From NCBI GenBank assembly GCA_965178125.1, contig OZ237740.1, forward strand, positions 124,001-188,000: 64,000 nt of DNA. The letters run 5' to 3'. The number at the start of each line of letters is the position of its first letter. The stretch's first letter is position 1. The notes beneath the pieces are model-generated. The model did not search any database. It worked only from the letters and a program-made list of their open reading frames with translations, and was not told the origin of the DNA. This DNA is from Bilabrum cf. latius (taxonomy: Eukaryota). The position numbers were made by a program, and so were the translations under genes. Shown here in pieces: positions 13,401 through 64,000 of the stretch.

Positions 13401-16400
13401 GCTTAAGCTGGAGAGAGGCGACACGATTGGAATGAGCTACATTCCGAGGGACACGGAATCTCCGCCGGGTCGGATCGGGTCGGGCTCACCGCCTCGCGTG
13501 GTGGCAAGTGCGTCGAGCGGCGAGGCAGGGCAGGACACCAGCGGGGGTATTTAGCACGGTGAGTCGGCCAAGTCTCTCGCCAACAGCACGAGCAAGTACT
13601 TCTACAAGTCGCGACAGAACCCCCCCTTCAAGCCGTTCGACGTCGAAGTGCCGGGGCCTGTCCCCATTGTGGCCCGATGGAGGCGGGGCGTGCTCGCTCT
13701 GTTCTCTGCCGGGGAGGTGTCCCGCGCCGGGGTAGAGGAGTCAAACGGGCGCTGGTGGGTAGGGTCCACCTGGGAGGAGGAACAGGCGGAGAAGAAGCGG
13801 AGAGAAGATCAGGAGAAGGCCGACAAGGAGCGCGCCGAACAGGAGCAGGAGCAGGAGCAGGTGGCGAGCGCCGCCGGTGCAGGTTCGGGTGCGCTTAAGG
13901 GAAACTCGCAGGGTGGTCCAGGAGGGGGTGTTATATTGGCAGCGCGCAGCGGTAAATCGACGAGGCAATCGGCGGGCCAAGCAGCCGGCGTGCAATCGGC
14001 TGCGCGCGCTGTGGCAGTCTCGCGAGACCATGGCAGCGGAGGTAGCGGATATGCCGACCGGCATGACTCCATGGACCGAGTGGTCGGGTCTTCCAGAGAA
14101 CAAAGTGGTGAACTGTTGGGCCCGGTACCCCACGCGGCCACCCGAGTCGCTACCCCGAAGCACCGGCACCACGGGGCCCTGGACGCACCCGGGACGGAAG
14201 GTGCGACGCACGGCATGGGCGTGGGTGTCGAGGGCCGGGCGCCAGCTCACGCGACCTCTGACGGAACCGAAGCGCAGTCGGTGGAAAATTCATCGAACGG
14301 CCAGGGCAGTGTGGGCCAGCTTCGAGAATTCCTTCCCGTAGTGGACCACACGCCGTCCAAGCCGCACACCGAGGAGCCTGCCGGCATCGACAACGACGAG
14401 CCACCCATTTGGCCAGTGGACGATCTTGCCGAGTACCTCGAGGACTACAACGCGGTGGTGAGCATGCTGCATCGCGCCGACTGTAACAGCTTCGCCTACC
14501 GCAGGCTGCAGCTGCTGGAAGCGAGGTATGGTCTGCACAGGCAGCTGAACAGGAGGAGGGAGGAGCTCGAGGCGCAGGCCACGCCGCATCGCGACATGTA
14601 CAACACGCGCCGAGTGGACACGCACGTTCACCACAGCGCGTGCATGACGCAGAAACACCTGCTGCGGTTCATTAAGTCGAAGCTCAGGCGCTGCCCCGAC
14701 GACATTGTTCATAAGGACAAGGCCAAGGGAGAGTAGACGCTGGCTCAGGTGTTTGACAGCCTGCGCATGACAGCCTATGACCTTAACATCAACACCATGA
14801 ACATGCACGCGGGGGAGAGGTGAGTTTGGACTGTTTTTATCAGCATGATTGTGTTTGTGAAGTCGCTGGGCCGCGCCTGCAGCTGCATGGATGTCGATGC
14901 CTCCGCATGGTGCGTTCTCGCCGCCACGGTGCACCACCCGTCTCGTTTCCCATGCCCAACCTCTTCCATGCAGCACGATGCGTCGCTTTGACAGATTCAA
15001 CGCCAAGTACAATCCCCTGGGTCAGAGCGTGCTGCGGACGGTGTTCCTCAAGACGCACAACCACATCAGCGGCAGGTATCTAGCAGAGGTGACCAAAGAG
15101 GTCATGGGAGACCTGAGGGAGAACAAGTACTCGCTGGTTGAGTGGAGGCTCAGCGTATATGGCAGGGACAGGCACGAGTGGAATCGGCTGGCTCGCTGGG
15201 TAACCAAGAACAAGCTGGCCAGCCCCGAGATCCGGTGGATGATCCAGGTCCCTCGGCTCTACTCGATTTACCACAAGGCGGGGATGGTGCGCTGCTTCCA
15301 GGACATGATGACGAACCTCTTCGAGCCCTTGTTCCGGGTCACCATTGACCCGAGCTGGGACCCGGAGCTCCACAAGTTTCTGAACCTGGTGACTGGGTTC
15401 GATTCAGTGGACGACGAGAGCAAGCACGAGGGCGGCAGGGACGCGGAAGTACCGCTGCCAGAGGACTGGGACTCGCCGCACGACCCTCCGTACTACTACT
15501 AGATGCACTTCCTCGCGGCCAATCTAAAGTCGCTGAACCTGCTGCGGAGAGCGAGGGGGCTGAGGGAGTTCTCGTTCCGGCCACACTGCGGCGAGGCCGG
15601 TGACATCGACCACCTGGCTGCTTGCCTGCTCACAGCAGAGAGCATCAACCACGGGATCAATCTTCGGCACCTTCCCGCCATGGAGTACGTCTACTACCTG
15701 GCCCAGATTGGACTCAGCGTGTCGCCTCTGTCCAACCACAGGCTGTTTGTGGACTATAGGTCCTCGCCGTTCCTCGGTTTTCTGCGGCGGGGTCACAATG
15801 TGACTCTTAGCTCTGATGACCCGCTGATCCTGCACTTCACGCGGGACTCCCTCCTGGAGGAGTACGTTATCGCCGCGCAAGTGTGGAAACTGAGTCCACC
15901 CGAAGTAGCGGAGATTATGCGCAACTCTCTAAGGATCTCTGGGTACGAGGAGCCTTACAAGCGGCACTGGCAGGGGCCGGCCCACGTGGCCCCCGGCCCA
16001 CGCGGAAACGACATCTTCCGAACGAACGTTCCTTAGGTTCGCTTGCAGTTCCGGTATGAGCTGTTGCAGGCAGAGCGTCAGGTTGTCGCGAAGGGAGCCT
16101 CCCTTGCCATCGGCTGCAGCGAGGACGAGCTCGAGCCCGTGGTGGACGAGGAGGACCACGACCCGTGGCTGGAGGACTTCCAGGACTGCTGTGTGACGAG
16201 TGACCATGTGACGAGTGAGAGCCAGCTAGATCCCCTTGTGCGCGCCTACGAGGACGAGGCTCACAGGCTGGAGCGGAGAACAGCGGCAGGGGCAGGGGCC
16301 CAGCCCGGGTCTGCTCCATCAAGCCTGGACCTGCCCCGGCACCTGAGGCACACCTACGGGGACGAGGGCGGGGTGGTGGTGGAATTGAGCCATGCGGGAC

Positions 16401-16906
16401 GGGACGACCCGGCGTTTTGGGGCTGGCTGCGGCGCCGCGACGTGTTCCGCAAGAGGAGGCGGCAGGAGAGGCTCCTCGAGGCCAAGCTGCGGCGGGAGGT
16501 GACCCCATCGAGCGGGGGCTCGGCCCGGGGAATGCTCCTGGGAGACCCCAGGCTGGGGGGCGTGGGGAACACATCCGACGTAAGCGAGTTCGGGGCCGCA
16601 CAGATGGGTAAGGCGGTTGCAACCGGCTCGCAACCGGGCGCCGCTGCGGGGGGCGACGCAGCGTCTGCCGCTGCCGTTGCAGCCGCGATGAAACTGGATT
16701 CCGAGTCCGGGACGGGCGGGCTGGGCCTGAGCGCATCGGATCTGGGGCCCATTCCCGGGGCCGGGGGGGCGGTTCCTCCTGACGTCACAGAGGAGGATGA
16801 TCCGATCCTGCGGAGGGTGTCCGGAGGAACGCCCCAACAGGCCCGCCGGTCTGCCCAGATCGGCAGCATCCAGCTGAGGCAGGGCCCGCAGGTGCGCGAG
16901 ACGTAA
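10416..16906 (+). CDS. AMPD: AMP deaminase with very long low-complexity N-terminal extension
   Basis: Motifs RVDTHVHHSACM, RFDRFNAKYNP, GFDSVDDESK, FRPHCGEAG, LSSDDPL, GNDIFRTNVP. Introns 10648-10813 and 14820-14973. In-frame TAG at 10584, 11527, 11533, 11647, 13552, 14734, 15500, 16034. Ends TAA 16904-16906. First exon is inferred. Confidence 0.93.
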
Positions 16907-17226
16907 TGAGAATTGGTGTACCAATTGGCCCTTGTGGGACGTGGTGCGGCGAGAGCGCGGACAGGACAGGAGAGGATGGTCTCAGGCGACCCTTCGCCTT
17001 TGAGGCCGGGCGGGGCCAGGTTTTGTCGCGCGCAGCCTCTACTGGTCTGCGGCCGTTGCTCCGCTGCTCGATGAAGTTTGAACGATTTGCAGATGAAAAC
17101 GGATACTGAAAAGGCAGTGATTTTGTGCGGCGGAAAGGAACGCCAGGCGAACCTTCGCGATTCAATAGAACCTTCGTTACAGCGAACTTCGCGAAGGCCG
17201 ACCATTTTCGGCAAGAATCGATTGGG

Positions 17227-24714: not shown

Positions 24715-27700
24715 TCACGAGAGCTCGGCAGCGTTCGACTTGCCAGCGCCGAACCCCGGCGAGCTGCTGAAGGTCGATGCACTGCTCTGCCCATCCTTAG
24801 CATGGACCAACTGCATCGGATTGGCTGTCTGGATCGCGACTTGAGGCTAGGCGGACCCGGCAGGGGTGGGAGCTGGCTCGGACGACCTCACAACCAAAAC
24901 GTAGTACCCCGCAGCACCGATCCCTGCCAGTACTACCACAGCCACAAGTGCGCCGACAATTGCACCCACGGGGGAATCGGATGCGCTGTCGCCATCGCCA
25001 TCGCTATCACTACCTGCGCCAGCATTTTTCGCCCTGGGCGTCTGAGAAGTGCCCGTGCAGGCGTCCATCTGAACTCCAGTGTCGTAGTTGTCCGTCACCT
25101 GGACCGTTCCGATCTCGACCGGATCCATCAGAACGACTCTGCCAAGGACAAAGTTTGCGCCAGGAACGTCCGTAAAATCCATAGCAACCTCTCCCAGACC
25201 GCTTTGAAAGCTTGAGGCACCGGCATCGAGTCCAACAGTCGCCTCAGAGCACGAAGTGGAGGCCTGAAGCTCGCGACTCGCTGCCGCGTGTGTCTCCTCA
25301 CCGGGGGCAATTGCGATAGGGTCGCTCAGCTTGCGAGAGTCGAGCAGCTATGACGCGGTTCCAGACAGTCTGCGCCGGCTGCTCAAGCTGACTGTAGGGG
25401 TCGTAAAAGTGTTGGACCAAGGGGTGTTTGTGTTGACTGCTGTCGTGGATACTTGGATGGAGAAGTAGACCTCATAGCCAGAACTCCGGCCCGACATATC
25501 AGACAAGTACACCCACGTGTACCATCCGTTTGCGTTGCTATTAAATCGAGACAGCTGCTTTTCCTAGAGAATCTGAGTGTCAGAAACGGGAAGTGACCAA
25601 TCGTCTTGCCAGCCGTTGAGCAGGACAATGTCTGGGTTGCCGCAGGATGAGTCTCCGGTCCAGGTGAAAAACACGAAAACGACAGACTACGAGGAATCGA
25701 ACTCAAGCTTGGTGACTCGTGCATTTGAAATGCCGTCCTCGCAAGCGGGGTTGTTGCTATCGATGTCGATGTTTGACGATGATGAACTGAAGACCGTCCA
25801 AGATCTGTCCGCAGCTCGGTGTTTCACAGACACCCTGAAGTACACCTCGTCACCCTCATCGGCGATGGTAGAAGCGGGGACATCGACATAGTAGTTGCCA
25901 TTCTACAATGTCGTCAGGCCGGATGAAAAATCGCGCTCGTCTAGCACGTTGATGTCGGTGACCCCAGCAAAATCTCGCGACCTCCAAGCGTTCACTCGCA
26001 CACCGACGACTTCCCGACAAACCACGGCGGAACTTGACGAGAACGAAACACGGACATTGGTTCCCACTTCTCTAACAGACGAGATGCTCGGCCCTTTCCG
26101 CTACCCTCTCTGGCACTTGTAGGGCACGTAGCTGGTCAACCCACTCCGGTCTGACACAGCCGACCCGCTCGAGGTCTCCACTGTAACTGCGAAAGCCACG
26201 TTGTACGTGTCTGCCTGGCTCAGATCTGAAACGGGAATGTTGATGTAGTTATAGTCAGTCGACCTCTACATGACGTACTACCGATTCGAGTATAGTGTGC
26301 CAAGAGTGCCGTAGTAGACGCTAACGAATGCCTGGCTTATGCTTCCGCATGCGGTCGTAGAAGAGTGCGTGAAACGGACCTGAAGTTTCTCATACGGGCC
26401 TCCAGCGGTGTCGTCAATATACCAAATTGCTGACAGGACGCTTGGAGCTGGTGGCTTAGCGCAAGTCGGATCGTTCGCGCTGATGTCGATGCTCGATGAT
26501 GCGGCGCTCCGAGGGGACCACGAAACGCTGTTTGCCTCGTACGCCACGTATACGTAAAAGTATACCTTTTTGCCGTTGTCCTGGATGGCGGATGCGGGTA
26601 CTTCTACGTAGCTCCCAGTACTGTCGCTGCTGAGGCTGGAGGTAAGGTCTCTATCATTCAGGACTTGCGTATCAAGGATACTGCCAGTTCCTCGCCAGGC
26701 ATCCACCTTGACCTTGGCGACACCCCGGCACACGTTGTGCACGCTCTCCGCAAATCGAATACGGACGTTACTGCCCACCTCTGCCACAGACGTGATCCTG
26801 TGGTTTCCTCCATCGATATAGTACGAAGTGCAGCGGTAGGGCATGTTGTTCGTCTCTACCGAGTGATCGGATATCGCGGTGCCGTGAGCCGTTCTGACTG
26901 CGATGCTGTAGTGGACGTCTCGAGCACCAGCTCCAGTCAAGTCATCAACTGGAACGTTGACATACTTGTAGTCGCTTGCAGACTGCACCGAGTACTGCCT
27001 GTTCGTGATGACGTCGGTCCATAGACTCGTGTCTGCTGAGACGAGCACTTGCGTTATGCTACCACATGCGGTGGTAGACGAATGCCGAAATTGGATCTAG
27101 ACGTAGTCCCAGCTGCCCCCGTCAGGATCGTCAATGTACACAACATCAGTGATGGTGGGAGTGCTTGGCTTAGCACATGATTGGCTTGGCGTATCATCGT
27201 CGTCAGCTGCATCGTCAGTTGGATCCGGGGTATCGTCAGTTGGATCCGGGGTATCGTCAGTTGGATCCGGGGTATCATCCCCTAGACTTGGAGTATCGTC
27301 TATTGGGTCGTCCCCGATCGATCCGCTACTGTCCTCGATCTCACGAATGGCGGGCGCTGGATTGCCCGGCGTTCCCACCTTTGGTGCGAGCTGAATGCTC
27401 GGGAAGAGCTCGAGCGGAATGATGTTGTACAGCCTAAGGGTAACCAGCGGCCCAATGTCAACAACCGATCGGCCGGAGCTGACTGCGCCCCCGTCACTCT
27501 GAATCACCGTCAGAGGCCTGTACTCGAACCCCCAGTCTGCGTTCGCGATGGCCGTGCCCGGGTCCTCGTCCCAGCGAAGCCCACTGCACTACAATTCTTT
27601 CCAACCCCCGTTATCAGTCGCGGATTGGCAGCCAATGTTGGCCCAGCAAGTACCACTATCGAAGCAATCTGACACGCAGTAGCAACTCTCCGAGAGTTGC

Positions 27701-32900: not shown

Positions 32901-35900
32901 TCCTGTTCCCGCAGTCCCAGCGGGGGTCCCAGTGGTCGCAGATGTACTTGCCCTCGGCCGCGCACCGCGCCTCGGCGGTTGCGTACGACACGCGCTCTCC
33001 CGCGTACCCCTTGCAGGGAACAGTGGCGCGCCATGGGTTGCCGTGCTCGCAGCAGCCGCCGCCCGCAGCAGACAGCCGCTCGTCGATGCAGAAGCCGTTC
33101 CACCGCCAGCCCGTGCTGGCGGGCTTCTACCTGCCCTCCTCCACGAAGGCAAACTCCACGCATGGCACCCGCTCGTACTCGTAGTACACGGGCGACTGGT
33201 GCTAACCGCGATCGATCTTGATCACACGCACCGTTTCCACGTCGCACTCGATGCCGTGGCACTCCAAGTTGGAATTGATCGTCACCACCGAGTCCAGCAT
33301 GCTCTTGCAGGACGCCGCTGTGCTCCCCTGTTCGCCGCAGATAGCGCCGTGAAGCTGTGACTCGCCCCGGACTGGGGTGAAGTAGTCGAAATTCTTGGTG
33401 TTGCCGTGATCCGTCTGCAGCTTGGGGGTCGGATCCTCGCCCAGGTAGTGGTACCTGGCACCTTTTCGGAGGAAATGGAGCTTGGGCAGGCTCCAGCACG
33501 CGGGGTAGGAATCCCCGATGTGGCGCCCATGCAGTGCCAGCTTAGGGAAGGAGTCGCGCCACGTGGGCTGCACCCACAGCGGGTCGATGTGGTTGTAGCT
33601 GTTGTCGCCACCGGGATTCTCGATGTTGCCTCTGGCGGGCTGCTGGTCGAACCCCGTCCAGACGCGGGACAGCTCGAGCACGTCGTCGTTTGTGTACGTG
33701 GGAATAGGTTCTCCGTTGGAGTCGAGCTTCTGGGTACCGTTCATGTGCAGCTCCCACAGTCCGATGGTGAAGAGCTACATGATCTCCCTGGCGTAGTTCT
33801 CGTCGGGGTACAGCTCCTTGCGCGGCCAGATGTACTTGGAGTAGTGCAGCGATCGAGTCTCGAGGAAAGTCAGCATGCGGGCCATGGCGGGGCTGTAGGA
33901 CACCTCCTTGACGATGTCGCGGTAGCTGCCGAAGGCGTTCCGCACGAAGATGTCGTAGTACGTCAGGAAGATCTCCATCTCGTTCTGCCTAGAGATGCCC
34001 TCCTGCGACACCACAAAGATCTGCGCAAGCGCCCAGGCCACCCTCTGCCTCAGCTGATCGGGGGCGTCCATGACTGTGTTCAGCCAAGCGGTGGACTTGG
34101 ACTGACTGCCACGCCTGCCCCTCACGTATTGGTCCTCCTCCTGGTTGTTGATGTCGTTGTTCCCTGCAATTCCCATCACGTACCGCATGCCCTCCGCGGG
34201 TTCATTCGCCACCTCGCCTGGAGACCCGCAGAACTCCTGCAGGGGTGCCTGGTTGGAGCCAGTGGAGGCCCCCGAGCCTATGGCTGTGCCCAGGGCGTCG
34301 TTGACGAGCTCCCGAGGCAGGTCTGCAAAATCAACGTTCTGGTTGCGCCTTCCAATGTATGTGTGCTTGCTCTCGTGGCCCCTCCACCGACTCATCATGT
34401 GCCAACTAGGATAGGTGAGCGAGGCGGAGCCAGACATGGCGAACTTGGCGATGGGGTTAGGGCGGTTACCGTTGAATGCCTCGTCGTTGCCCTGGTGCAG
34501 CGTGGTCCAGGCCGTGAAATCGTACACGGACAGCTCGTTGTGGTGGACGTGCTGCCAGCAGGTCACCACGCCGGTCCCCGTAGAGTTGTCCGTCACCAGG
34601 ATCTGCACACCCTTGCTGGCAGCCGTGCACTCGTCGTCCTTGGATCGGATGTCGATGACGTCAGCGTCATCGTCGGCCTCTAGAATCAGCTCGGAGAGCC
34701 AGTCGTGGGTTCCCTGATCGATCGCGGCAGAGCTGCCCTCGCTGGGCTGAGCAGCTTGAGGGCATTGGTCTCCTGCCCCCACGCGCCTCCACCTGCTGGT
34801 GGTATCGTCGCACGGCGGGTCCTCACCGTCCAGCCTCAGGCCGGTGACGTAGTGCACGTGCCTGCCAACGTGCTCGTAGAACGCCTTGATGGTGTCGTCA
34901 TCAAGCTGTACGGTCCGACTGGGATACATACGAGAGGCGCACCGCTGCAGGCCCACCTTGCACGAGTGCTCGTTCAGGAACGTCCTCGGCACCACCACGC
35001 ACTGCTCCACGCCCCGTATGACGTCACTCGACGGTTCACTGACGTCATTGTCAATCAGGCGCAGGCGTGACTCGTGCAGCAGCCACTCGGAAGGCGCCCC
35101 GTTGGATCCGCTCGAGGTTCTGAGAAAGGCGGGGCCGGTGGGAGGCGCATCGCACGAGCTACCTTGGACGGCGGGAAGATAGAAGGCGTCCACAGCAGGT
35201 GCGGCCACAGGCACAACCTCTGCATTTGTCATGACAAGCCGATTCCCCACAGCAGCCTGCAGCTCGCTCGTGGGGAAATGTACCTGCGGATTGTCCATGC
35301 GGCCCATGCAGTCCGTACCGAACTCGATCTCACCACCCACCTTCTGCTCCACGTCGCAGATGGCCCACGGTGCGTCACCAGCCATGGAATCTGCGGTCCA
35401 ATTGGCACCCATGTACGTCCGCGGCATGCCGTCCACCGTCAGGATGCCATCACTCGTCACATCGAGCTTCTAGCCCTGGTCATCGATCGACAGAGCAAAC
35501 CTCCTCCACCGTGACTCGGCCTGGCAGGGGCCACGCACCCCGCCCGAGTCGATCGGGCGAAGGTTCCTTGGGTTCGCTCGCTTGCGGTAGTACGCCCGGT
35601 GGAGCGTGGGAGGCACCTCATGCATCTGGTCATAGACCCACCCGGATGCGGTGCGGGCGAATTCCTCGGTGGGGTTCGGGGTGGGGTTGGGGCCTGGGGT
35701 AGGGAAAGCGTCCAGCTCTGCCCTAGTGGTTCCGAAGGTTGCAGCCTGCAGAAATCGGGCGGCGCGGACCTCATGGGGAACCTGGTCCGGCGAGAGCACC
35801 GCAGTGGACTGCACCCAGTAGGCAACGCCTCCACCCTCGGCCCCGTCCTGCAGCGCGCGGCGCCGGCTCTCGCTCGACGCGGTTCCGCTGGCTGCGTCCT

Positions 35901-48838: not shown

Positions 48839-49036
48839 AATGATCGCAATTTCGCGGAGCGTATCTGCGGTTTGTGACAGCAAGTGACGGGATAGATCCA
48901 CTGGCCTAGTTGCAGTCTCGGCGTCGTCACACAAACGCTGGATTCTCGAACCTTGTATTCGATCTCTCGCGCGAGCACTAGCAGTCGCCCACTTCAAATA
49001 TCGGCCTAGCAAGAAAGAGAATCCGCGGTCCAATAT

Positions 49037-50356: not shown

Positions 50357-50582
50357 TTTTTAAGTATTGCATATGCCGGGAAATTTCGAGACAATACGTT
50401 GCTGCTGCAACACACAAGGAGCCCAGACAGTTTGAATGCTTCCGGGTTGCAGGGTTGCAGTTGCACAGAAGTGTAGATCACGACCGGCTTACAAAATATA
50501 CAGTCAAAGACACATCATGGATGAAACCAGACTACTTGTACAGACTGGCTCCCACCACCGCGCTTCAGAGAGACCCGATTGC

Positions 50583-53500
50583 TCACGAGACCACGCAGCA
50601 CCCGCTGCCGCCGTCCTGGCTTCCTGCGTCAGCCTGAGGGCTACTGGCTGCGGGGGCGGCGGCAGCGGGCGCCGGTGCTGGCTCAGCCTGCGCCTCGGGG
50701 TCAATTTCAGGTTCCGGTCCATCCACAGCTGCGGAACCCACGTTCATTGCACCGGGCCCGTCGCCTGCGCCCCCCCTGGCCGCCCGCGCCGCGGCGTCGT
50801 CGGCAGCAGCCGCGAAGGCAAGGAAATCCTCCGCATCCGTCGGTCCGTCCACCTTCCACTGAAAGACCACGCGGTCGGCACCGCTCACACTCACCAGCCG
50901 CTCGTCTCCCGGGAGCCAACGAACGTTCGTCACGAAGCTGGAGTGCCCGCCGAACACCTTGGACTGCTGCTTCTCGTCGCACGCAGGGAACCGGAACAGC
51001 CTCAGCTGCCTCTTTTCGTCGCCCACCGCGAGCACACCCCTCTGTTTTGACAGGTCGCAGGCCCTTACCGCATTCATGTCGATCGTCTCGTTGTGAGCCG
51101 CCATAGTCGCCCACTGGATGGTGCAGTGCTCCGAGGCCCACTTCTCCTGCTTGAGCTCAGAGGCAGAGGCGACATGCCTGCCCGTTGTGGCGTCGTAGAA
51201 CAGGAGCTCGTGAGCACCGTCGTTCACTCGGATGTACTTGCTGTTGGCGGACCAGTCGAAGTGCACGACGAACGAGTTGCTCTTCCTCAGCTTTTCCACC
51301 ACGCGGTACCCGTCCGTCGCGTCCATCACGTACACGCAGTTGTCGTGGGATCCGATGGCCAGGTACTTGCTGTCCGGTGAGAACTTGCAGTCCGAGATCC
51401 ACTCCTTGCTAAGGGGCCTCGCCGACTCGTACACCAGCTCGAGCGTCTCTGCGTTCAGCACGGCGAACCCACCCAACTTCTTGTCCTTGCCCCGCACTGT
51501 TCCCCCGAGATCGCCACCAAAGCCCACGGCCACGAGGTTGCCATCACCGGAGAAGGACACGCATCGGATCAGCGAGCCTAGGTCGCATTCGGCCAGCTGG
51601 GCGCATTTCTGCGCATCCCACAGCCTCAGTGTGTTGTCGTCGCCTGACGTCACAAACCGCTGCTCCGTGGGGTGGGCGGCCACGCCCCACAGCTCAGAGA
51701 ACACGCGGGGGCACCAGTGGCCGTGCACTACGGGCCTGCCGCCATGCAGCAGATCGCCAGACCCTGCGTCCATCTCCATCACGCGGCCAGACCGCAGCAC
51801 CGCTCCGTTCTTGGTGCCGTCCTGGCTTGCGGCAATGGCCACCACCTGGTTCAGCTTGGACACGGGCTTGCCCCCCGCCCCCCTGGTCACCAGGCTCTCG
51901 ATCTTGGACTCGACCTTCAGGGCGTCTGGGTCCAGCACGGCCACGGTGCCGTCGGAAGCACCGCAGACGAGCTGGCCGGTCGCAGGGTTCCTAGCGATGG
52001 AGAACACGGGCTGCCTGGACACCCGCTCGATGTCCGCCATGCGCCGACCCGCGAACTTAACTGCGTATCCCTTGGCTGACACGCCGTACACGGTGCCAGA
52101 AGGTGCAGCCCTCCGCCGCCCGCGCCTCCCGCTGGCAGCCGAGGCCGCCTCGCCATCCCCGGACGGAGGCACGGTGCACAGGGCGAGGAGTGGATCCCCT
52201 CTCATCTTCGGGTGGGAGATTCCCCTGGAGGAACGGCCGGTCCTCACGTCCCAGAAGTTGACCTGCCTCTTGTCCGACACGACCAGCGTGTCCTCGTCCT
52301 GGAAGGCGACGGAGCAGACGTACTCTGCCGAGCTGCCCGAGTTGGCGAGCAGCATCTCGCCCTTGCGCACGTCGTACACGTACACCGTGTGCTTGTCGTC
52401 CATGCACGCGAAACCGACTCTGTTCCCCGAGGGCGACCAGGCCAGCGACTTGACCTCCCTCATGCCGTGCTTGAGCGGGATTGTGGCGATCCTCTTGAGG
52501 GAGAGCGCGGGGTCCCTTGGCTTGGTGAGGCGCTTCTTGGGATTCTTGTGGTACTTGCTAGAGGGCCCCTTGCGTCGGCCCCGCTTGGCACGGGCAGCCT
52601 TCCTCTTGTTCCTCGCCTTAAGTGAGGCCTCATCCTCGAAGAAGTCCTCCACCTCACCGGAGCCCCCCGACCTGTCTTCCTCCTGTTCCTCCAGGCTCCA
52701 GATCAGCACGCGGGGCTTGGCGCCGCGGTCACCAGAGGCCGCCATAGTGCCGTCTGGTGACACGGCGAGTGACGTCACTCTGCATCGCCCATGACCCGTG
52801 AAATACTGCTGGGTGGCTGCCTCCCCCGTAGACTGCACCACCACCATGCCTCCGGCAGGGAACACCACACGCCCACTGGCATCGTACCCGATGGCAGAGT
52901 TGTAGATGGTCTTGTTGTAGTCGAGACGGTAGTCGTAGCACGCCACGCCGTGTACCCACTCCAGCTCAAGGTCGCACAGCGGAGGCTCGTAGTCAGGCCC
53001 GGCCCACCCCGCGGGCTCCGACGCCTTGATCGCACCTTCCCAAGGCTTTACGGCCATGTGTCCCACGTCGTCCGCCTTGCCGCCGATGGTCTCCACAGTG
53101 GGTCCATCCCCATCCCCATCCCCGTCACCCTCCTTCCCCTCCCCCGCACCCTCGTCGCCCTCCCCCTCACCCGCCTCTTCCCCTTCCTCCTCGCCCACAC
53201 CATCCGCCTCGTAGTCGCTGGGGTACTCGTCCCCGTCGACGTCGAACTCCTCATCGGGGTCCTCGTCGTCCGCCCCAGCGTGCTCCCCCGCACCGCTGGC
53301 AGGCCCCGCCTCGAATTCCTCGTCGGCGGCATCCGAGACGAACTCCATGAGGCTCGCGCACTCGTCACTCGAAGCGGCGGCGAATGAGACCTCCAGGGCG
53401 TCGACCTTGTCGCCGCCACCCCCACCTGCCGACTCGGCTCCCTCATTCGCCTCCGCTGCCTTTGCGCGCGCGTCTGAGATGATCTTCTCGGCCACGGTGC

Positions 53501-54288
53501 CTGCTTGCTCCAGCAAGGCGGCGGGGTCGCCCTCCAGGTTGGTGGCAGCAGCAGAGGCCGCGGCGATGAGTGCGCGGGCGACAGCGGCCACACCATCCGC
53601 ATCAACGGCGCCCAGTTCTTCGCTCTGGTAGTCAACCGCGAGCTGCGTGAGCTCAAAGGCCTGGTCTGTCAGCGAGAGGTCGGAGCCGGCGACGGCCAGA
53701 ATCACCACACGCTTTGCGACATCCACGTCCTGCGAAAACTCATATTGAACAAAAAGGAGATCTCGCTAGTGTCAGCTTCATGCGCCACGCGCTCGAGGCG
53801 AGCTCCCGTGATGACCCGAGGCCTGCAGCTCGCGCGCGAGAACGAGATCGGGAGCGGGTAGTCATCCCTTTTGGCAGCAATATGCAGACCAGCAGCGGCA
53901 GGGAGGCATCAATTACATTATGAACAGCTAAATCATGCCAGTTTAAACAATTAAGCATGCCGGAAATTCGCAAAAACTGGTACCTCACGCCGAGTGGAGC
54001 GATCAGATCGTCCTTCTGTTCGTCTGGCACGGCATCTCCGAGAATTGCTTTGACGCCGTCCTAATCAATGGTAGGGTTTGATACTGCCTGGTCCTGGTAG
54101 CGAGCCACCATGTCGCGCGCTGTCTCGGCACGTACTGCGGTACGAAAGGCGAAACCGAAAGAAACGCTGCAGCCGTGGCAAGGCCAGCAAAAAATAGTAA
54201 TCGAAGGAAGCTAATGGAATCGATACTCACAGCCAATGAGCGGCTTTACGAAATCATTGAATTGTGCTGTGCTGCTTTGCTATCCCAT
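50583..54288 (-). CDS. EML (echinoderm microtubule-associated protein-like; HELP + WD40) protein
   Basis: AVKPWEGAI, LELEWVHG, WD40 repeats (ELWGVAAHP, LAIGSHDN, GHSSFVTNVRW), C-terminus CCVVS then TGA. Inferred exon 1 54288-54231 (MG*QSS) and intron 54230-54135. The second intron (~53990-53730) has uncertain boundaries. Confidence 0.85.
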
Positions 54289-54488
54289 TGTATATGATCA
54301 GCTGTGAATGAGACTGGTGCGAGGCGCGCGACCAGCCGGGCTCAACGGAACCACGATGTTGCGACCAAAATAATGCCCAAAGTTGGTTGCAACCGCAAGC
54401 CCACCTCAAGCTCTTGGATCGATCAGTAGGTCCTCATCGATCTGTGCAAGGAAACTTTGAGGTACGTGTTAAGGTTGCTACACCAGCC

Positions 54489-57400
54489 ATGAGTAGGGCG
54501 TTGTTGAAGGCTATTCGGCTCGGGAACACGGTGTCTGTCGCCAAGAAAGTGAGCCGACCCAACGCGTTTGCCTGCACGTTTCGCCGCACGCTTGGCCTTC
54601 CACGTACAGTGATTTACGACGTATCATCTGCCACATTGGTTTTCAATACGTTCGCAGCTTGAGGAGACTGCCATAAACCCCAATGAGCGCGACGTGGCTG
54701 GTGCTACGCCCATCATGCACGCTGCATGGTGGGGCCACGTTGGGATTGTAGAGGCTTTGATTTCCTCGGGAGCCAACCCAAATGTGAGACATATACTTGA
54801 CGAATTGCTTTGCCCGGTCTCTGCGCGTCGTAGGGCTTCCAGTAGGTGATTGTCGTGCGATGTGATGGCGCGCACCTTGTCGGTCCATAGTTTTCCTTGC
54901 AACCAACGCAGGCACACAACCTAAACCTTAACACTCCCCTGCATTTCGCGTATGAACGCGGTCATAGGCAGGTTGTCGAACTTCTTCTGGCCCGCGGGGC
55001 TGCGCCGAGCGCCCACAAACGGAATCGTCGCGGCTTCCTGCCAAGGGAGCTGGGCACCGACGCCAACCCCGTCAGGCGATTCATTCAGACCGTCCTTGGC
55101 GGCAGATCGAAATCCGAGGCACCCTCTGTCGAAGAAATGGCGACTCCGCGACCTCGAACGCTCCGTGCTCTTGGCACCTCGGCTGCAGCGCCGGGAGGGG
55201 GCGCCTCCTCGTCCTCCAAGCCGCGAAGGACCTCTTCCACCAACCCCGCCACTTCGTCAGCATTGTTGCAGCAGGCACAGGCGGTACGCGCAAAGGACCA
55301 TGACACTCATCACACCGCTGCAGCCTCGGAGTTTCCGCGGAGCTCCAGCCTCCAGCAGCCCTCGACAGCGACTGCGGCCTCGGAGGGCGGCACAATCACG
55401 GTCCCGCCCTCGCTGCCGCAGTCAAGACGCACCGGTGCTACCCAGGGAACAGAGTAGGGAACAATCCAGGGAACAGGACCTCATGTGCCGCACCTACCGG
55501 TGGGGGGGAGCCAGAGCGGTACCCGTGTGACGAGTTAGTCCCGATCGCACAGCGCCAGAGCGACTCCCGGGGACGGCGCGGCGCCGCTGGTTCCGCAGCG
55601 GGAGCAGCGCTCGTGGCGGTCGCTGCCTGCAACGTCTGCTTCCGGTGCCGGCGGGGCCGCGCTCGTCACCACACCCGACGAGGACCGGGACGATTCCGAG
55701 TCCTGGTTCTTCGAGTCCGAGGTTGCGACCGGCACGGATGGGTCAGATGCGACCGGCGGCGGTGATGACTCGAGCACGTCGCTACTGGGTGCGCCCCCGC
55801 GTCCCCGGGGGGACTCGAGTGGACCCCGGGGAGCCCACCTGAGCACCGGCGGGGTCAGCGGCGAGGCGGGGCGGGGGCAAAGTGATAGCACTGGGGTGGG
55901 GGTCAGCTTCGATGCGCGGTCGGGGGGCGTCGCCGGCGACGAACCCCTGAGGGAAGGTTCGGTGACGGCGCGCACGGCCCCTGCAGCGGATCGGATCGGT
56001 GACGGTGCGACCGGGCACAGCCCGGGCAGCTTTGCGAGTCTCAGGAGCCGTGACGAATCCAGGGAACACACGGATCACTCGCACCATGGAGATGCAATGA
56101 GTGAAGATGAAGATGGGAGGTCCTACGCGAGTGCCTGCGACGGTGACCACGGCCAGGGGAGGGGCGCCGGCTGGGTGGCGTCTGGGTCCGCCTCGGGGAG
56201 CGTGGCATCTGAAGGTGGTCGGCGCCCCAGGATCGGTTGCAACCATTTCGACCCGTCCGAGGAGCACACATCGGGCTACGCCGATGGTGGATACTCGTCA
56301 CACCCAGCCCTCTCCCCCGGGATGGACGAGGACGTGGAGTCGCGGCCTCGTTTCAACTCGACGGGGTCCGATGACATCCACGGGCGCGGTGGCCAAACCC
56401 GTCCGGTTGCAACCGGGCAGACGAACCCGCAGCCAGTGGCCCCGCCACCGCTGCCACTTTCCCCACCCCCAGTGCCCAGGGGTAGCGCCGATGGGATTGC
56501 ATCCGCTGTGTCGCCTCAGGCACAGCAAGGCGGTGTTGGGCGAGGCAAGCCGGTCCCGCCCACCAGGCGGACTGTCGGGTTTCCGCCGAAAGCGCCCGAC
56601 AGGGGTAGTGGCACTGGTGGCGGTAAGTCCCATTCTACGTCTTCTGCTGGTAGTCAGCCGTCTGCAACACCTGGGAACACCCGAGGCGACCAGTAGGAGG
56701 AGACCCCAGCAGAAGAATCTGGCAGTGCCAAGAAGCTGCCCAATCCTGCCCTGGGCTCAGTACGTGCCTCCGCTGCTGCAGTGGGCGGTGGCATCAACAG
56801 CACGGCCGCATCCACACCGCCAAGACCGCCTTCACGAATCCGCGGCACGTCCGCCCCACATGGGCCCGATGCGACCAACTAGAATGCGAACTAGAATGCG
56901 GGCGAGGACAGCGATGGCAGCAAGGCAAGGCGGGTCAAGCAAGGCAAGTACTCTACCATCGGCGGGATGCGAACCGCAAGGACAAAGCACGGGCCAGGTC
57001 CCTCCAGCGAAGGCAAAGCGAAGGCCGGGCGCTACGGCACGACCGGAGGAAGGCGAGGCAGCACCGGGCCGATCGACAAGCGACTGCTGCAGAGCCTTCG
57101 TGTGGATCCCTGCGTGGGAGTCAGGTATGCCATATAGGCGTAGGCCTCCCACGGCATGGGATCGGTGCGGCGGTCGTTTCGGGAGGGTAGTCCGGTGTGG
57201 GAGCGTGACTGGGGGGAGGGGGCTGATTCATCCTCTTCGGGTGAGGAGGGCGGGCGCCGTGGCGGTGCTGGTCGGGGCAGGGGGAGGCGGCCTCGCAGAC
57301 AGCGCGGGAGAATGCTTCCGGGCAGCAGGTTAAGGGATTCGTCGGTCAGCAGCACCAGCTCTGATTCAGATGACGAGGACGGGAACGTGGCGTCCGGCGA

Positions 57401-59648
57401 GGCGGGGATTGGCCGTAGGGGCGCGTCGAGCGGTGCGCTTGGAGGTCAGGGCGACGACGAGATGGGAGGCACCGGCGCCGCGTACCCGTCTTCTTCGCTC
57501 TCTCGCCGGTTCAGCAGACGGGCTCTGTACACGAATCGTGCTGCCATCAGCCTCCCAGGCGGTACAATGACCCTCAGGGAGGTATTCGACCTGGCTGACT
57601 TGGATGAGGACGGGCTGCTTGACGAGAAAGAGGAACTGCGCGCCGCGCTCGTGGCGATCGGCCTGGAGTGGGGTCCAGAGCACCTGTCTGCGTGCAGGGC
57701 GGGGGGTGTGAGGGGCCTGGGTCGGATGCTGAGGAGGCGAGCGCGTGCCAGGGAACAAGCCAAGCAGGCTGCGCAGCTGGCCAAGATGGCCGGTGCTACC
57801 GCTGGATCGGGTGGGATGGGGGGCGGCGCCGGCGGCAGTTCTTCGGGTGGTGCCAGAGGCCGGCGAGCCACGGTGGCGCTGGGCAGGATGGGCGCCGGCA
57901 TGCCTCCCATGATTCGAAGGACGTCCACGGACGGAGGCTTCAGGAGCTCTTCCAGGATTGCCGCCATTCCGGAGGAGTCCTTCGTACCTGATGGTTCCAA
58001 TGACCACGACGCGACGAGCCGGCCGGGAGGGCTGACCCGTGACGGCACGTCAGGCAGGTCCGGTCACCAACAGGCAGGAGCAGGCGAGCTGACGGCCAGC
58101 CGAACCAGCAAGGTGGCCAAAGGCGTCCCACCGACCAGCTCAAGTCCGGAAGGCTCAGCCACTGCCTCAAACGCCGTGCTATCCATCCCGAACGAGCCCT
58201 TGGATACCCCTGTGGCCAGCCTGCCCAAGCGGTCAGCTACCCCTCCCCAGCGAAGGGGGTCCAAGATCGGGGAGGAGTCCGGAATCGAAAAGACCGCGAC
58301 CAGGGAGCCGCGGACGACCAGGGGCAGCCGCAACGGGACGGACTGGTTCCGGCACGGCGTTACTTTCGTGCAGTACAGTGCCATCAGCGAAACGCTGCAG
58401 AGGCACGGGGCACAGATGGACCCAAGCGCCTCGCTGGAGCGGGGCATGGCGCAGGAGCTGGGGCTGGACCTCGGCACAGGTGCTGCGATCGGGGCTGCTG
58501 CGGGTGCGAACGGCGCCGGGATTGATGCCATCGGTGGCTTGCAGGAGCGAGCGAACATCGGTGCGTCTGCAGGCGGCTCTGAACGCCAGGACGGTTCCGC
58601 GGGTTCTGGGGCTGCGCGGTTTGCGGGACTGGGTGATCTCACGCCCGTGATTGGCGGCGGGAATGAAGGTCACTCCAAGCTGATGGCTGCCCGCATGCCT
58701 GGCATGCCCCTTGGGCTTCGGTCGTGGACCAGGCAGCAGCAGGAATAGCTCGACAGTGGCGGTGCGGATGCACTGAGGAGCGCGCTGCTGTCCCGTAAGG
58801 CCGGCAAGCACAGCCCGAGAGTTGACCCCGATGCCCCTGCGCGTGGGAGTCCCGAACATGCAGCTGGGCACGCTGCTGGCTCAAAACCTTCGCCTGAGGG
58901 CGTCAGATCCTCCGCACTAGACAAGAAGGGCAGCGCTGGCGCTGAGGAGAGTGCCACCATGGACACCGGTGGTCAAACTGAGGTAATCGGTGCAGCTGGA
59001 CCAATGGTTTCCACCGCTGTTGAGGGGCAGCGGAAGTAGCAGCATCAGTAGCAGTAGCAGGCATCTGCCGAATCCGTGGACATGAAATCGCAGTGCGTGC
59101 TGGGGCCGATCCTGCCCGAGGGCGCCGCACCTCCGCCCCTGGTGTTCCTGGGGGGGGGCTGCAACCCAACCACGTGGCGTTTCGATGCGGCCATCCCCCG
59201 GTTGCTTGCAGCCAGCATGCGGTGCTACAACCCCCAGGTGGAGGAATGGGACCCCTCTCTGATCCAGCTGGAGGAGACGGCCAAGCAGGAGGCTGACGTG
59301 CTCCTCTTCGTGATCGGGCCTGAGACCAGGGCGGTGGCCAGCATGATCGAGGTGGCAGAGCTGGCGGCCGACCCCAGCTCAACGGATAGATTGGTGGTGG
59401 TCGTGGAAGACGTGCCCGCGGGCGCTTCCATCGGGGAGGAAAAGGTGGGGCCCTCACAGCTGAAGGACCTCAACAGAGGCAGGGCTTATTTGGCGAAGTG
59501 CCTGGATAGGCACGGTGTTCCGGCCATGTCCGACGTGGGTGCGGGCGTGGAGGAGTGCATTCGAAGGTGCAAGAAGGTCATGAAGCAGGAACGGAGGAAG
59601 CAGAAGCACATCCTCAAGAGCAGGGCCGGGCCTGGACCGCTGTACTGA
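54489..59648 (+). CDS. Ankyrin repeat + EF-hand + nucleoside 2-deoxyribosyltransferase-like (Raw-like) domain protein
   Basis: Introns 54549-54657 and 54784-54911. Ankyrin motifs TPIMHAAWWGH and TPLHFAYERGH, EF-hand DLDEDGLLDEKE, C-terminal VFLGGGCNPTTWR...YNPQVEEW...TRAVASMIE...DLNRGRAYL. Eleven in-frame TAG (55455, 55536, 56694, 56880, 56892, 57135, 57141, 58746, 59037, 59049, 59055). Ends TGA. Confidence 0.82.
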
Positions 59649-60173
59649 TCATCACCGGCCACGGCTTGTTGGGCGTGTGCTGCTCAATGCTGTCCTGCTC
59701 AAGTTTGAATCACTTATTCCTGAAATGTATGTGTGAGGTACATACAAAGATTATTTGAACTGTATCATCGAGATCGGTAAATGTAGCCGTGCTGGCGAGT
59801 GTATACCGGGATCCAATGCAAGAGATCGATTATTCCAGCGCTTCATGCTGCACCAAACAAATAATTGGCCAGCCGGACAGACAGTGTGTATGTTTGACCG
59901 TAAAAAACGAATGCCACTTCGATACCACGACGCCGGCGGGAGATATTCGCACAACTGCAACTGCGCACTGCGATGTGACTGCCTGCACATGCCAGTTCTA
60001 GACGATTGACTGCTTATCTGCTTAATTCTGTAAACAACTACTTTAGGTCATTGTGGCCGCACACACGTTGTCAACAGTGTCAACAACTGACAGTTGGCAA
60101 ACTAGTTTTAGACACTCGGCCAGGACCAGCAGCAGTAAGCGAGAACTGGACATTAGCGAACCTCCAAACAGCT

Positions 60174-62016
60174 TCAGGCTAGCGGCTTGCTACGCACGAC
60201 CCAGAAGTCATCAGAGTACTTGCCATGGGGCGCCTTGTGATTCTCGGCCGTCTGCACGAAGGTCAAGTGAGCATGAGTGGCGTTCATCGCCTGGTATGTG
60301 GAGAACCCGTAGGAATTGCTGCACGTCCTCATCCTCTCGTCAGAATGGTTGCAGTTTCCGTTGTCCTCGCGGTTGCCTGCCGCTCCCGTGATCACAGGAA
60401 TGATGTACTCGGGGTCGCGCACCACGCCGGGATCGCTGCCTGGGTATGCCTTGCCGGACACGGGGTCCACTGGCCAGAAGGCCTGGTAGTTGTGCACGTG
60501 GCCCACGAAGAGGAAATCAGCGCCCTTGGCCTGCGTCACCGTGGAAATGGGCGGTGTGGCTGTCTAGTGTGCGGCATCATCAAGGTCAATCCGTCACTGG
60601 CAGTCAGTCGGTCACAAGAGTGTGCGCGCACAAAGGTCATCATCAAAGCGGGCACCGTGGCTGCATTGCACTGCATTTCATTGATTTGCACTGCATTGCA
60701 CTCACGATAAGAGGGCTAATTCCGGTGAAGTTAGTGTTCATGTCGCTGTTAAGGCCGGTCCAGCTCTTGTGGGCGATGGCCACGACCCAGGGGGTCACAG
60801 AGCGGTCCACACCGCTGACTTCTTTGTGAATGAACGCGATCATGCGGTCGATCTCCGCCTGGTCCTGGTAGTAGACGAAGGCCTCGCTGGAAAAGTGCAC
60901 GAAGCGGGTGAGGCCGTACGTGTACGCGTAGTAGATGGCGCTATCGGAGCCCGAGCGACGCCCTGCGTAGTAGCCCACGCCCCTGAACCGCATCTTGTAC
61001 TCGGTGAAGTTGGCGCCGCGCTCGTGGTTGCCGGGACAGGGCATGTACGTGTACTGGGACGTGAACGGTGTCACCATCTGCTAGTAGAGTCCCAAGATGC
61101 AGAGAAATATGCGTGAGCAAAATGACAGATGCCTTGCAGGTGGTGCTAGCGACACGAATACAGCCAGGAAGACATCGATTTGCAGACCCTCGGCCATAAG
61201 GAAGCCCTCGCTCGAGCCAGCCTCTCGGCCCGCCTGTATCCCTAGTCTATCTCACGTCCATGTACTTGTTGCCCACAGTGCTTGACTCCGAGTCAAAGTC
61301 ATACGCAAACTGCGGGAGAGATACGCGGGGAATATTTGTCACTGGGACTTTCAGCGTACACTCTTGGGTGACGGCAATGCCAGCGGTCAAGGTCTTGGTC
61401 AAGGTGCGGTCGGAGCTGCGCTTCGCCTAAAGTCATAATACAGTCACATGAGATACCCGAGCCCCCGCAAACAACGAAAACGCCTATATCGATGATATGA
61501 AATGGGTTCGTGGAGCATAACCGCATCCAAGCAGCAGTACAAGCAATACTAACACCAACTGCAACTCACATCGCCCGCATGAATGATTGCGTCGTAAGAG
61601 CTCTTCTGCGCTTCTTCGATCAGCTTTGGTACGCTCATTGCATTTTCATATCCCATGTCTGCAAAGATGCTGACGACAGGGGGGCGGTTGCCCACGGTTC
61701 CGGTGGAAAAGTTGGCGGTGAACGACTTTTGGATCTCGTACACGATCCGGGCGTCTTGCTCCAGATCTACGAGCTCAGCGTTGCAGAGGTGTCCGATCGT
61801 CGAATATTCAACGCAGTAGCCTGTAGCAGTCTTGCTGAGAGGACCTCCAGCGGGCCCGTAGGCTACAGTGTTACCCGGATACTGGGATGAGACCCATTCT
61901 ACGACACGGTTGTTCGGCGCGCCGTCCCCTGCCAGCGACAGGTGCACCTGGGACACTGATGCAGTAGCAATAGTAGCAGAAATAGCCAAAAGGATTCTCT
62001 CTGCCACGGTGCGCAT
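60174..62016 (-). CDS. Purple acid phosphatase (metallophosphoesterase), secreted
   Basis: Signal peptide and metal-ligand motifs FADMG, AGD|FAYD, PGNHE, AHK, GHVHNY. Introns 61569-61310, 61255-~61080 and 60705-60531. Ends TGA. Confidence 0.9.
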
Positions 62017-62201
62017 TCTGCGGCGGAAGATATTCTGCAGGCCCTTCGACAAGGTGCACCTCAAGAAATACAGATTTTGTGTTTATTATAAGGTGTGGAA
62101 TAGCTCGCGACAACGCAACTACGCAACGAAGACCACAAAATATCATATCCCCGAGTCAAGACTCAACCTGCTGCCCCCAACATGCCCTGTCTGTCAGACG
62201 T

Positions 62202-64000
62202 TCAAGTGCCATCGCCAGCTGATCTGAAAGCCCGCCAAAAGAAGCCTCCCTTCACCGCGAAGAGCAGAGAAGTCACGGCAAGAGCAGCAGATGCCAGTAC
62301 GGGAGCGCCAGCAATGAACACCCTCTGCTCCCAGAGCAAGCCCTGCGGCACAAGATGCAGCTGGCCGAGCTGCCCGCCGTGCCCGCCCACCCTCCCAAGC
62401 GTGCACGCGTCCCACCCGCACGCACCGGCGGTGCAGCCGATGGCAAGGCCCACAGCGACCAGGATGCTCAGATCCTCGAATAGGCGGAACCACAAGGACA
62501 GTCTGGCCACGCCGCCCGCCACTTTGACCACCCATTCCCTAGGTCGCACGCACGATGCGTGCAGCCCGCTCCACCCGATCGCCTGTGCTTCCCAGGCCAA
62601 GAGCGCGCCCAGCAGCTGGGCCGTCACGCTGCACATGTCTCGGCGGAGGCTGTATAAACTGGCGTGTCCAATGCTACTGGTTGCGATGCTTGGCGGGCTA
62701 GGCTGCGCGGGATACGGCAGTCGTGCCTAGTCAGAAACGGGCCGGTTTTCGTCTTCTTGGCCGACCTCACGAACAGTCTGCTGGGCCGTTCGGTGCGACC
62801 CCCACGTGCTGCTTGGGCGCAGGACAGTGTGCGGCCCTGCCGCCGTTTTGTAGGCCTGGAGCGTGCTCTTGGGCCGAGTGGAGCTGCCGGTATCACTGAT
62901 GGTCTCGCTCTTCATCTTGCCTGTCGTCCTGAGCGAATGCACAGCATTCGCGCCGGTGCTGTTCCCCGAGCGGCCTGTCCCACGCGCAGCAGGGCCCAAA
63001 CCACTGGATGTTTCAAATTCTGTCTCCTGGAACGTAACTCCTTGGCCATGAACGGCAGCAGACGGGGCCTCCGCTCCTTTCTCGAAGCTTGACTGCACCC
63101 GTGAAGCCGTCCCGTCGCTGCTGTCCCCGCGAGAATCGGGAATGGACTCGAAGCGCGGAGTCTCCTTGTTGTCTTGGCGGTCAAACACGGATCCGAAGAG
63201 CATATCGCCAAAGCCAGAGCCGTCGGCACCATCGACCTAACCCGGCAAAGACTGCATAGAAGGCACCTTGATCTGCTCCTGCTCATGGCAATCGGGAGGA
63301 GGCACGTCCACGTCGCCGCTCTCGGGGAACGACTGCATGGAAGGCACTCGAATCAGCTCCTAGTGCTGACCCGGTGCGGATGCTTGTCCATCTGGTGCGT
63401 TCGGTACTTGGGTCCCTGCTGCATCGCATGATTGCTCCTCCTTCTCGCTCACCTCCTCCACGACCCCAAGGCTGCCGCCAAAATCGAAGGTCTGCCCGCC
63501 CAAGCCGCGCGATGACGGACTGCCAGAGTGTGGCAGCCCCGCTGCCGCCCTGCACCACATCTTCTGCACTCCCATTGGACTCACAGTCCCTGAGTGAATG
63601 CTGGATGGGGTGCTCGGCAAGGCCAGAGCCGCCTCCCTCGGCTCCTCCTCGGACCCTTTGGAGGCGCGAGCAAGCCTGGCCAAGTTGTTGCGCGGGGAAC
63701 TCAAGTCAGCGGCGGCGGCAGTGGCAGCTGCCGGTGGATCGAGCGCAGTGCCTGCAAAATGAGACGTACTTTCAGCGGTGTTCTCTGGCAGCGGCTTCGA
63801 CTCTGCCCCGAGGGAGTGGTTTGGGCTGACGTTGCCCCAGTAGCTGGAATCCATGGATGCTGCAGCTAGAAGCACAGAAGCGCCACCGCTGCCACCTGTT
63901 ACCCCCACTGCTGCGCGACCACCTCGACCGGCTCCTAGGCCAATGACAGGGCCTCCTGCGATGCCTTTGGAGCGACTTTCTGCATTTGTGATCCGGCTCG
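62202..64000 (-). CDS. Hypothetical protein with hydrophobic C-terminal region, 5' partial
   Basis: A single frame is open from the window end to TGA 62202, apart from TAG at 63360, 63237 and 62727. Confidence 0.6.

Follow-up and report, generated by a model that had tools for sequence, protein, structure and literature searches.

How can a reading frame that contains three stop codons of the standard code within seven codons be translated? This question is raised by a short tract at positions 59028–59060 (plus strand) of a 64,000-nucleotide stretch of eukaryotic DNA (contig OZ237740.1 of assembly GCA_965178125.1, Bilabrum cf. latius, positions 124,001 to 188,000), which is referred to here as the window. 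A direct read of the window gives the tract as CAG CGG AAG TAG CAG CAT CAG TAG CAG TAG CAG. An earlier interpretation of the DNA letters (the sequence-only reading) had written the tract identically and had argued that three leaky stops in so few codons are implausible and that TAG instead encodes glutamine, and our analysis bears this out. We consider it very probable that the tract lies in a gene of a GC-rich, intron-poor eukaryotic nuclear genome that uses UAG as a normal codon for glutamine while UGA, and apparently UAA, terminate translation; the tract would then be read as QRKQQHQQQQQ. The tract is a small symptom; what underlies it, and constitutes the real finding, is the organism's genetic code.

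When TAG is read through in the unspliced DNA, the frame of the tract stays open over 1615 codons (54801 up to the TGA at 59646), which include 14 TAG and no TAA. Three of these 14 TAGs belong to intron 2. The spliced coding sequence consists of three exons and extends over 1640 codons from the ATG at 54489, which is the first ATG of the frame past an upstream TGA, to the same TGA at 59646. Joining of the exons restores an unbroken ankyrin-repeat region. All of the TAGs of the coding sequence are located in exon 3 (55455, 55536, 56694, 56880, 56892, 57135, 57141, 58746, 59037, 59049 and 59055). In frame, the coding sequence has 11 TAG, no TAA and no TGA, whereas the two off frames contain 2 and 10 TAG, 4 and 3 TAA, and 23 and 36 TGA, respectively. 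Based on these off-frame densities, the probability that the 1397 codons past the first TAG remain without TGA or TAA is about 6e-13. Such a long frame, free of TGA and TAA despite their off-frame densities, therefore indicates that selection has purged these two codons, and not TAG. The glutamine codons of the gene would comprise 48 CAG, 7 CAA and 11 TAG.

The same pattern is observed across the window. In a tally of 11 open reading frames or gene models (12,685 in-frame codons; three of the models include some untranslated sequence), TAG is not depleted, with 53 occurrences in frame against 126 in the two off frames. In contrast, TAA occurs 7 times in frame against 72 times off frame, and TGA 3 times (the real stops within models) against 449 times. 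Without TAG in the set of stop codons, the longest open reading frames lengthen to 2442, 1615 and 1344 codons, compared with 1113 and 1060 codons under the full set, while dropping TAA instead causes almost no change.

The frame of the tract (codon starts divisible by three) is common to the PF15891 domain downstream of it and to the EF-hand-like loop and the ankyrin repeat upstream of it. The predicted protein of 1640 residues, which forms part of the very probable reading given above, would contain ankyrin repeats, a long low-complexity region, an EF-hand-like loop, a linker and a nucleoside-2-deoxyribosyltransferase-like (NDT-like) domain of the PF15891 family. The NDT-like domain scores above the family threshold and carries the near-invariant FLGG.CNPTTWR and NPQ motifs. 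The best EF-hand match (PF13499, E 0.0023, 18.7 bits against a cut-off of 30) does not reach the Pfam threshold. The 12-residue loop DLDEDGLLDEKE fits the canonical calcium-binding loop pattern, hence the loop is termed EF-hand-like only. The sequence-only reading had described the frame as joining an EF-hand region to an NDT-like domain; the single frame and the NDT-like domain are confirmed by our analysis, but the EF-hand remains below the Pfam thresholds. At least nine of the listed homologues, from protist and metagenome sources, join an EF-hand and PF15891 in one protein of about 250–320 residues. They have the same domain order as the window protein, an NDT-like domain 41–56% identical to it and a similar helix before the EF loop. 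The window protein differs from these homologues in its roughly fivefold length, in its additional N-terminal ankyrin repeats, in a low-complexity stretch of several hundred residues that separates the EF-hand-like loop from the NDT-like domain, and in an EF-hand match that stays sub-threshold.

Contigs of one DNA run (X1) and of three runs labelled 'RNA?' (X5, X6 and X7, from two studies) were placed on positions 44001–64000. X1 covers the whole 20 kb as one identical piece without any joint. Contigs of X5, X6 and X7 show joints with GT..AG borders in the plus-strand genes and CT..AC borders in the neighbouring minus-strand genes, none of which is present in X1, and the introns in the contig-covered stretch are 95–260 nucleotides long with GT..AG borders. 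X6 also has a loose end of 23 T at 50478, the 3' end of a minus-strand EML gene. Because the joints are absent from X1 and because of this poly-T end, we take X5–X7 to be derived from spliced, polyadenylated RNA. The joints 54548>54658 and 54783>54912 are present in all three runs, and their contigs have no splice joint between 54912 and 59749. The tract is crossed with no differences and no gaps by contigs of X6 (55907–59698), X5 (57873–59749) and X7 (58624–59642). Being crossed unspliced and identical to the DNA, the tract is therefore not an intron, and the RNA-derived sequence has TAG, not CAG. The sequence-only reading had stated that its proposal would fall if the tract were in an intron or an untranslated region and the NDT-like domain in a separately transcribed gene; in the contigs of three runs the tract is instead joined, unspliced, to the sequence upstream of it as well as to the NDT-like domain.

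These contigs also bear on two other explanations. The least probable is that the tract is intronic or is read in another frame as poly-serine. The +1 frame does give AGC and AGT serine codons (GSGSSSISSSS) in which the C/T differences fall at third positions, but it is open for just 32 codons, from the TAA at 58984 to the TGA at 59083, both flanking conserved blocks are in the glutamine frame, and the missing joints over 54912–59749 argue against an intron. It is also extremely improbable that the TAGs are genuine stops which are passed by programmed or leaky readthrough, or which U-to-C RNA editing converts to CAG. A near-cognate glutamine tRNA has been described as reading UAG at low efficiency in standard-code organisms (PMC13192750). 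However, with 11 TAGs in one coding sequence, and with a window-wide in-frame density equal to that of non-coding frames, TAG is not selected against, and leaky readthrough of 11 stops in one coding sequence is not credible. Editing is opposed by the RNA-derived contigs, whose letters all agree with the DNA over this stretch, although a contig does not retain rare variants.

Comparison with a relative supports the coding nature of the region around the tract. The metagenome contig L001 comes from a relative with 81% amino-acid identity over the NDT-like domain. With TAG read as glutamine, a single frame of L001 goes from the contig start into the domain and includes an upstream block that matches the one in the window. 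Over the 39 codons of this upstream block, 10 codons are identical, 18 differ synonymously and 11 non-synonymously between the window and L001; over the 188 codons of the NDT-like domain, the corresponding numbers are 59, 95 and 34. Because the two conserved blocks keep one frame across a linker of variable length in two organisms, the linker is likely to be coding.

This comparison can be set against the standard code, under which the TAGs would be real stops, the upstream region would be either a decayed gene or a leader that is not translated, and translation of the NDT-like domain by itself would start at the ATG at 59082, or the domain would have a transcript of its own. Public gene calls follow the standard code. 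P0122 consists of the domain only, and P0123 lies between two TAGs of L001. The TAG at 33777 closes P0340, and P0465 starts at the ATG that follows and runs up to another TAG. In the AMP deaminase gene, P0002 stops exactly where the TAG at 16034 stands. These cuts concern the regions 29980–37374 (minus strand) and 14972–16099 (plus strand) of the window and 305–868 of L001. The tract is also not conserved in L001, whose linker is shorter. On the other hand, the 1640 in-frame codons contain neither TGA nor TAA against 59 TGA and 7 TAA off frame, the upstream block is kept in frame with an excess of synonymous differences (18 versus 11), TAGs occupy invariant glutamine positions within conserved domains, and one transcript contig is unbroken over 55907–59698. 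We therefore regard the standard code as highly improbable for this gene.

If UAG is a sense codon, the residue that it specifies can be judged from conserved alignment columns. In the DUF1800 domain of another gene, the TAG at 33775–33777 is aligned to glutamine in 143 of 148 homologues and to glutamate in the other 5 (two rows identical to the window were excluded from this count). In L001, a TAG stands in the NPQ motif at a column with glutamine in all 36 other aligned rows; the window has CAG there. TAGs are found inside the alignments of the DUF1800, AMP deaminase and PF15891 domains and are kept in transcript contigs. Glutamine is the only recurring residue, and every strongly conserved TAG column in these alignments has glutamine. 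It is very unlikely that TAG is a sense codon for tyrosine or glutamate, or an ambiguous, context-dependent sense/stop codon of the Condylostoma type. Tyrosine does occur at two TAG columns and glutamate in those 5 DUF1800 rows, but only glutamine recurs at conserved columns (the two just mentioned, the closest relative, and three of the five columns in a pair of paralogous repeats). The DUF1800/DUF1501 protein has no matches among solved structures.

Which codons still terminate translation was analysed over the same 12,685 codons. All 7 in-frame TAAs lie at a relative position of at most 0.09 or at least 0.92, that is at the margins of open reading frames or past the stop, and none is internal. 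If TAA encoded glutamine at the CAA to CAG ratio (84:372), about 10 internal TAAs would be expected, and the probability of finding none is about 4e-5. TGA is the stop codon of the three genes whose 3' ends are supported by RNA. The five gene ends supported by RNA or composition, a small sample, comprise three TGA, one TAA, one TAA-TGA and no TAG. For the ambiguous sense/stop code this means that TAG is at none of the five ends, although with just five supported ends in the window TAG termination might occur elsewhere in the genome. UAA has apparently been kept as a stop, as judged from 64 kb. UAG for glutamine with UAA and UGA as stops is the best description of these 64 kb and five supported gene ends. 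A UAR-to-Gln code (NCBI table 6) was considered and rejected, given the lack of internal in-frame TAA in the window and the probable TAA stops. Tandem stops were noted at two gene ends, TAA TGA in the AMP deaminase gene and TGA TGA in the L001 gene (about 869–874).

Returning to the tract, random placement of the 11 TAGs of the coding sequence would put three inside seven codons with a probability of about 0.005. When TAG is instead used at the glutamine rate of the gene (11 of 66), the probability of 3 TAGs among the 8 glutamine codons of the tract is about 0.13, and the TAG density of the tract is unremarkable under the glutamine reading. The alternation of CAG and TAG would have arisen from synonymous C/T change, from slippage of a TAGCAG unit, or from both. 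The sequence-only reading had attributed it to synonymous drift in a glutamine homopolymer. That CAG and TAG are synonymous partners agrees with our results; three separate point changes may not be needed, since the pattern TAGCAG...TAGCAG TAGCAG suggests slippage of the six-base unit as much as independent changes. The tract is missing from L001 and is therefore likely to be a young, unconstrained piece of a fast-evolving linker which is probably disordered. Two further sequences of this kind were noted. A 3271-base contig of the DNA run X1 matches 59035–59060 (26 bases) twice, in tandem and on the opposite strand, as would be expected if the sample had a comparable repeat elsewhere. Another run of mixed codons, CAG TAG CAA TAG TAG CAG, is present at 61962–61979 (plus strand), directly upstream of a minus-strand gene for a purple-acid-phosphatase-like protein.

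Besides the absence of the tract from L001, several observations weigh against UAG as glutamine in an expressed gene. Both solved AMP deaminases have tyrosine at the TAG at 15500, and they have aspartate and histidine at the TAG at 16034. Two of the five TAG columns in the paralogous repeats pair with tyrosine and serine. At the TAG at 48562, in a pectinacetylesterase-family (Notum-like) gene, one Notum chain has glutamine and a second has aspartate. The TAG at 58746 aligns to histidine in L001, and the other three TAGs of L001 align to alanine, lysine and methionine in the window; P0124 has glutamine at the third TAG of L001. These partners other than glutamine are found in variable columns or in distant homologues. 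The run labels are a guess ('RNA?', and X6 is also labelled 'probably DNA'), and the RNA origin of the contigs is deduced from the joints and the poly-T end. Contigs cannot prove one mRNA molecule or translation, and they may hide rare variants. ARAGORN detected no tRNA gene in the window or in L001–L005, and eRF1 is not among the genes identified in the window. A survey of CAG runs, which the sequence-only reading had proposed for the whole genome, yielded over 64 kb eight runs of at least four codons, with three runs containing TAG against 8 with GAG and 10 with CGG, and is too small to help.

As for the mechanism, a glutamine tRNA with the anticodon CUA would decode UAG, and eRF1 would no longer recognise UAG or terminate at it, as in other UAG-to-Gln lineages. 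According to PMC11687900, a tRNA with the anticodon CUA is not expected to read UAA, so UAG could change alone.

Table 1. Positions in the window of the elements of the tract-bearing gene, and of TAG and stop codons in other genes.
Feature	Positions	Strand	Evidence or remark
Coding exon 1	54489..54548	+	begins the ankyrin-repeat region; GT..AG joint to exon 2
Intron 1	54549..54657	+	109 nt, GT..AG; joint in X5, X6, X7, not in DNA run X1
Coding exon 2	54658..54783	+	ankyrin repeats stay in frame
Intron 2	54784..54911	+	128 nt, GT..AG; holds TAGs 54831, 54843, 54888
Coding exon 3	54912..59648	+	stop TGA 59646–59648
Ankyrin repeat, PF00023	54927..55013	+	Pfam 24.7 bits, cut-off 21.1
EF-hand-like loop DLDEDGLLDEKE	57570..57659	+	Pfam EF-hand families sub-threshold; weak match to the EF-hand of P0132
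Conserved block before tract	58671..58787	+	same frame as tract; includes TAG 58746
Variable linker with tract	58788..59081	+	294 nt, L001 counterpart 156 nt; both multiples of three
Tract	59028..59060	+	in contigs X6 rec18, X5 rec12, X7 rec23, unspliced, unchanged
In-frame TAGs of tract (three)	59037–59039, 59049–59051, 59055–59057	+	sequence
NDT-like C-terminal domain	59082..59645	+	PF15891 'Nuc_deoxyri_tr2' match 59139–59405, 51.2 bits, cut-off 30
3' untranslated end	59649..59749	+	transcript contigs stop at 59698 and 59749
TAG in DUF1800 motif	33775..33777	-	...YAREIM(TAG)LFTIGL
TAG in AMP deaminase gene	15500..15502	+	Q in P0002 (95% identical)
Two paralogous repeats of ~238 residues, 5 TAG columns	25753..27177	-	partners Q, Q, Q, Y, S
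Probable TAA stop, EamA-family gene	2712..2714	-	abrupt AT-rich turn right after
TAA TGA ending AMP deaminase gene	16904..16909	+	sequence

The window has a G+C content of 62% and carries eukaryotic nuclear genes on both strands. These encode a CDC5-like Myb protein, an EML-type double beta-propeller protein, a CH-domain protein of the sperm-flagellar type, an AMP deaminase, a pectinacetylesterase/Notum-family protein, a C1-like peptidase and a 2464-codon DUF1800+DUF1501 protein. The CDC5-like protein is about 58–70% identical to those of plants, oomycetes, diatoms and animals alike and is uninformative for placement. In a tree of the AMP deaminase, the window and P0002 form a long branch within a well-supported clade of 10 sequences, which is sister to an ochrophyte-plus-oomycete clade and apart from green plants, fungi and animals; this is a coarse placement from a single gene, in a tree with no ciliate or fornicate rows. 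The high G+C content and introns of 95–260 nucleotides do not appear to fit ciliates. Descent from a known UAG-to-Gln lineage appears unlikely on these features and the tree position. Amoebophrya sp. Kv was rejected as a source; it is described in PMC12005148 as AT-rich and as having all three stops in frame.

Several of the neighbouring genes have features of their own. DUF1800 and DUF1501 are fused in the 2464-codon open reading frame (29980–37374, minus strand), and many homologues are similarly long (1500–2400 residues). An open reading frame at 24715–28092 (minus strand) without Pfam matches contains the two paralogous repeats, which are 44% identical, together with an acidic repeat rich in threonine, proline and aspartate (TPDPTDD) and a C-terminal hydrophobic stretch; it has 10 in-frame TAGs and resembles a surface protein. 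The Pfam match of the AMP deaminase is divided between two frames, with profile positions 111–251 ending at 14823 and 253–627 starting past 14861 (plus strand), which implies a short intron or a frame change at 14823–14861. The phosphatase-like gene (60054–61900, minus strand) has no TAG before its TGA stop, and the EML gene (50478–54231, minus strand) has 2 TAGs in about 1100 codons, both near its start. These two genes with few TAGs have the deepest RNA-derived contigs, while the gene of the tract has 11 TAGs in 1640 codons. It is possible that TAG is avoided in highly expressed genes, although only a very small sample is available and expression is poorly measured by contig depth.

A code in which UAG specifies glutamine is NCBI table 15, and the reassignment of UAG to glutamine is itself an already known phenomenon. 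The nuclear codes with UAG alone reassigned to glutamine that are named in PMC11687900 and PMC5304391 are those of the fornicate Iotanema spirale, the ciliate Protocruzia tuzeti and two phyllopharyngean ciliate lineages. The window is like these codes in having in-frame TAG at glutamine positions, no sense TAA in the codons tallied, and TGA as a stop, but it differs from these lineages in its GC-rich composition, its GT..AG introns of 95–260 nucleotides and its tree position near the ochrophyte-plus-oomycete clade. UAR-to-Gln codes have been listed for many ciliates, ulvophycean green algae, Hexamita, Streblomastix and the aphelid Amoeboaphelidium (PMC11687900). They also read a stop as glutamine and use TGA as the main terminator; in contrast to them, the interiors of the window's open reading frames are without TAA, which appears to end two genes. 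Among the ambiguous stop/sense codes, PMC12005148 names those of Condylostoma, karyorelict ciliates, Blastocrithidia and Amoebophrya sp. ex Karlodinium veneficum. The window resembles these, as described there, in having in-frame stops in expressed, conserved genes which are not edited from the RNA; however, just one of the three stops is affected, and no TAG termination is seen among its few gene ends. Poly-glutamine and glutamine-rich tracts written with reassigned stops have been reported in ciliates, where non-CAG glutamine codons are discussed in relation to CAG/CTG slippage (PMC10942620). As in the ciliate tracts of that account, a former stop partly encodes the glutamine run of the window. 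Unlike those tracts, which use TAA and TAG with very little CAG, the window gene is dominated by CAG, and TAG is only added.

No report of a GC-rich organism outside the ciliates and fornicates with UAG alone reassigned to glutamine was found in a literature search of sources that cover few subscription journals. We tentatively suggest, with somewhat less than even confidence, that this reassignment took place independently in a lineage not so far reported to deviate from the standard code, with a GC-rich genome, ordinary introns, a position beside the stramenopiles in a one-gene tree, and UAA and UGA as stops. If so, it would be only the second such case outside the ciliates after Iotanema, as far as the cases given in PMC11687900 go, and at least one relative, that of L001, would have the same change.

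For the organism and its relatives, the finding has a practical side. Standard-code gene callers cut genes at each TAG, and for these organisms the proteomes and domain architectures in public databases are therefore fragmented. The tract shows TAG as a synonymous partner of CAG within a repeat and lends itself well to the design of a diagnostic peptide or amplicon. In a GC-rich genome, TAG is commoner than TAA. According to PMC11687900, a change of UAA is virtually always accompanied by one of UAG, and vice versa. Few nuclear genomes deviate from the standard code, and a new lineage in which UAG alone has changed would, if confirmed, provide an independent data point on how UAA is uncoupled from UAG.

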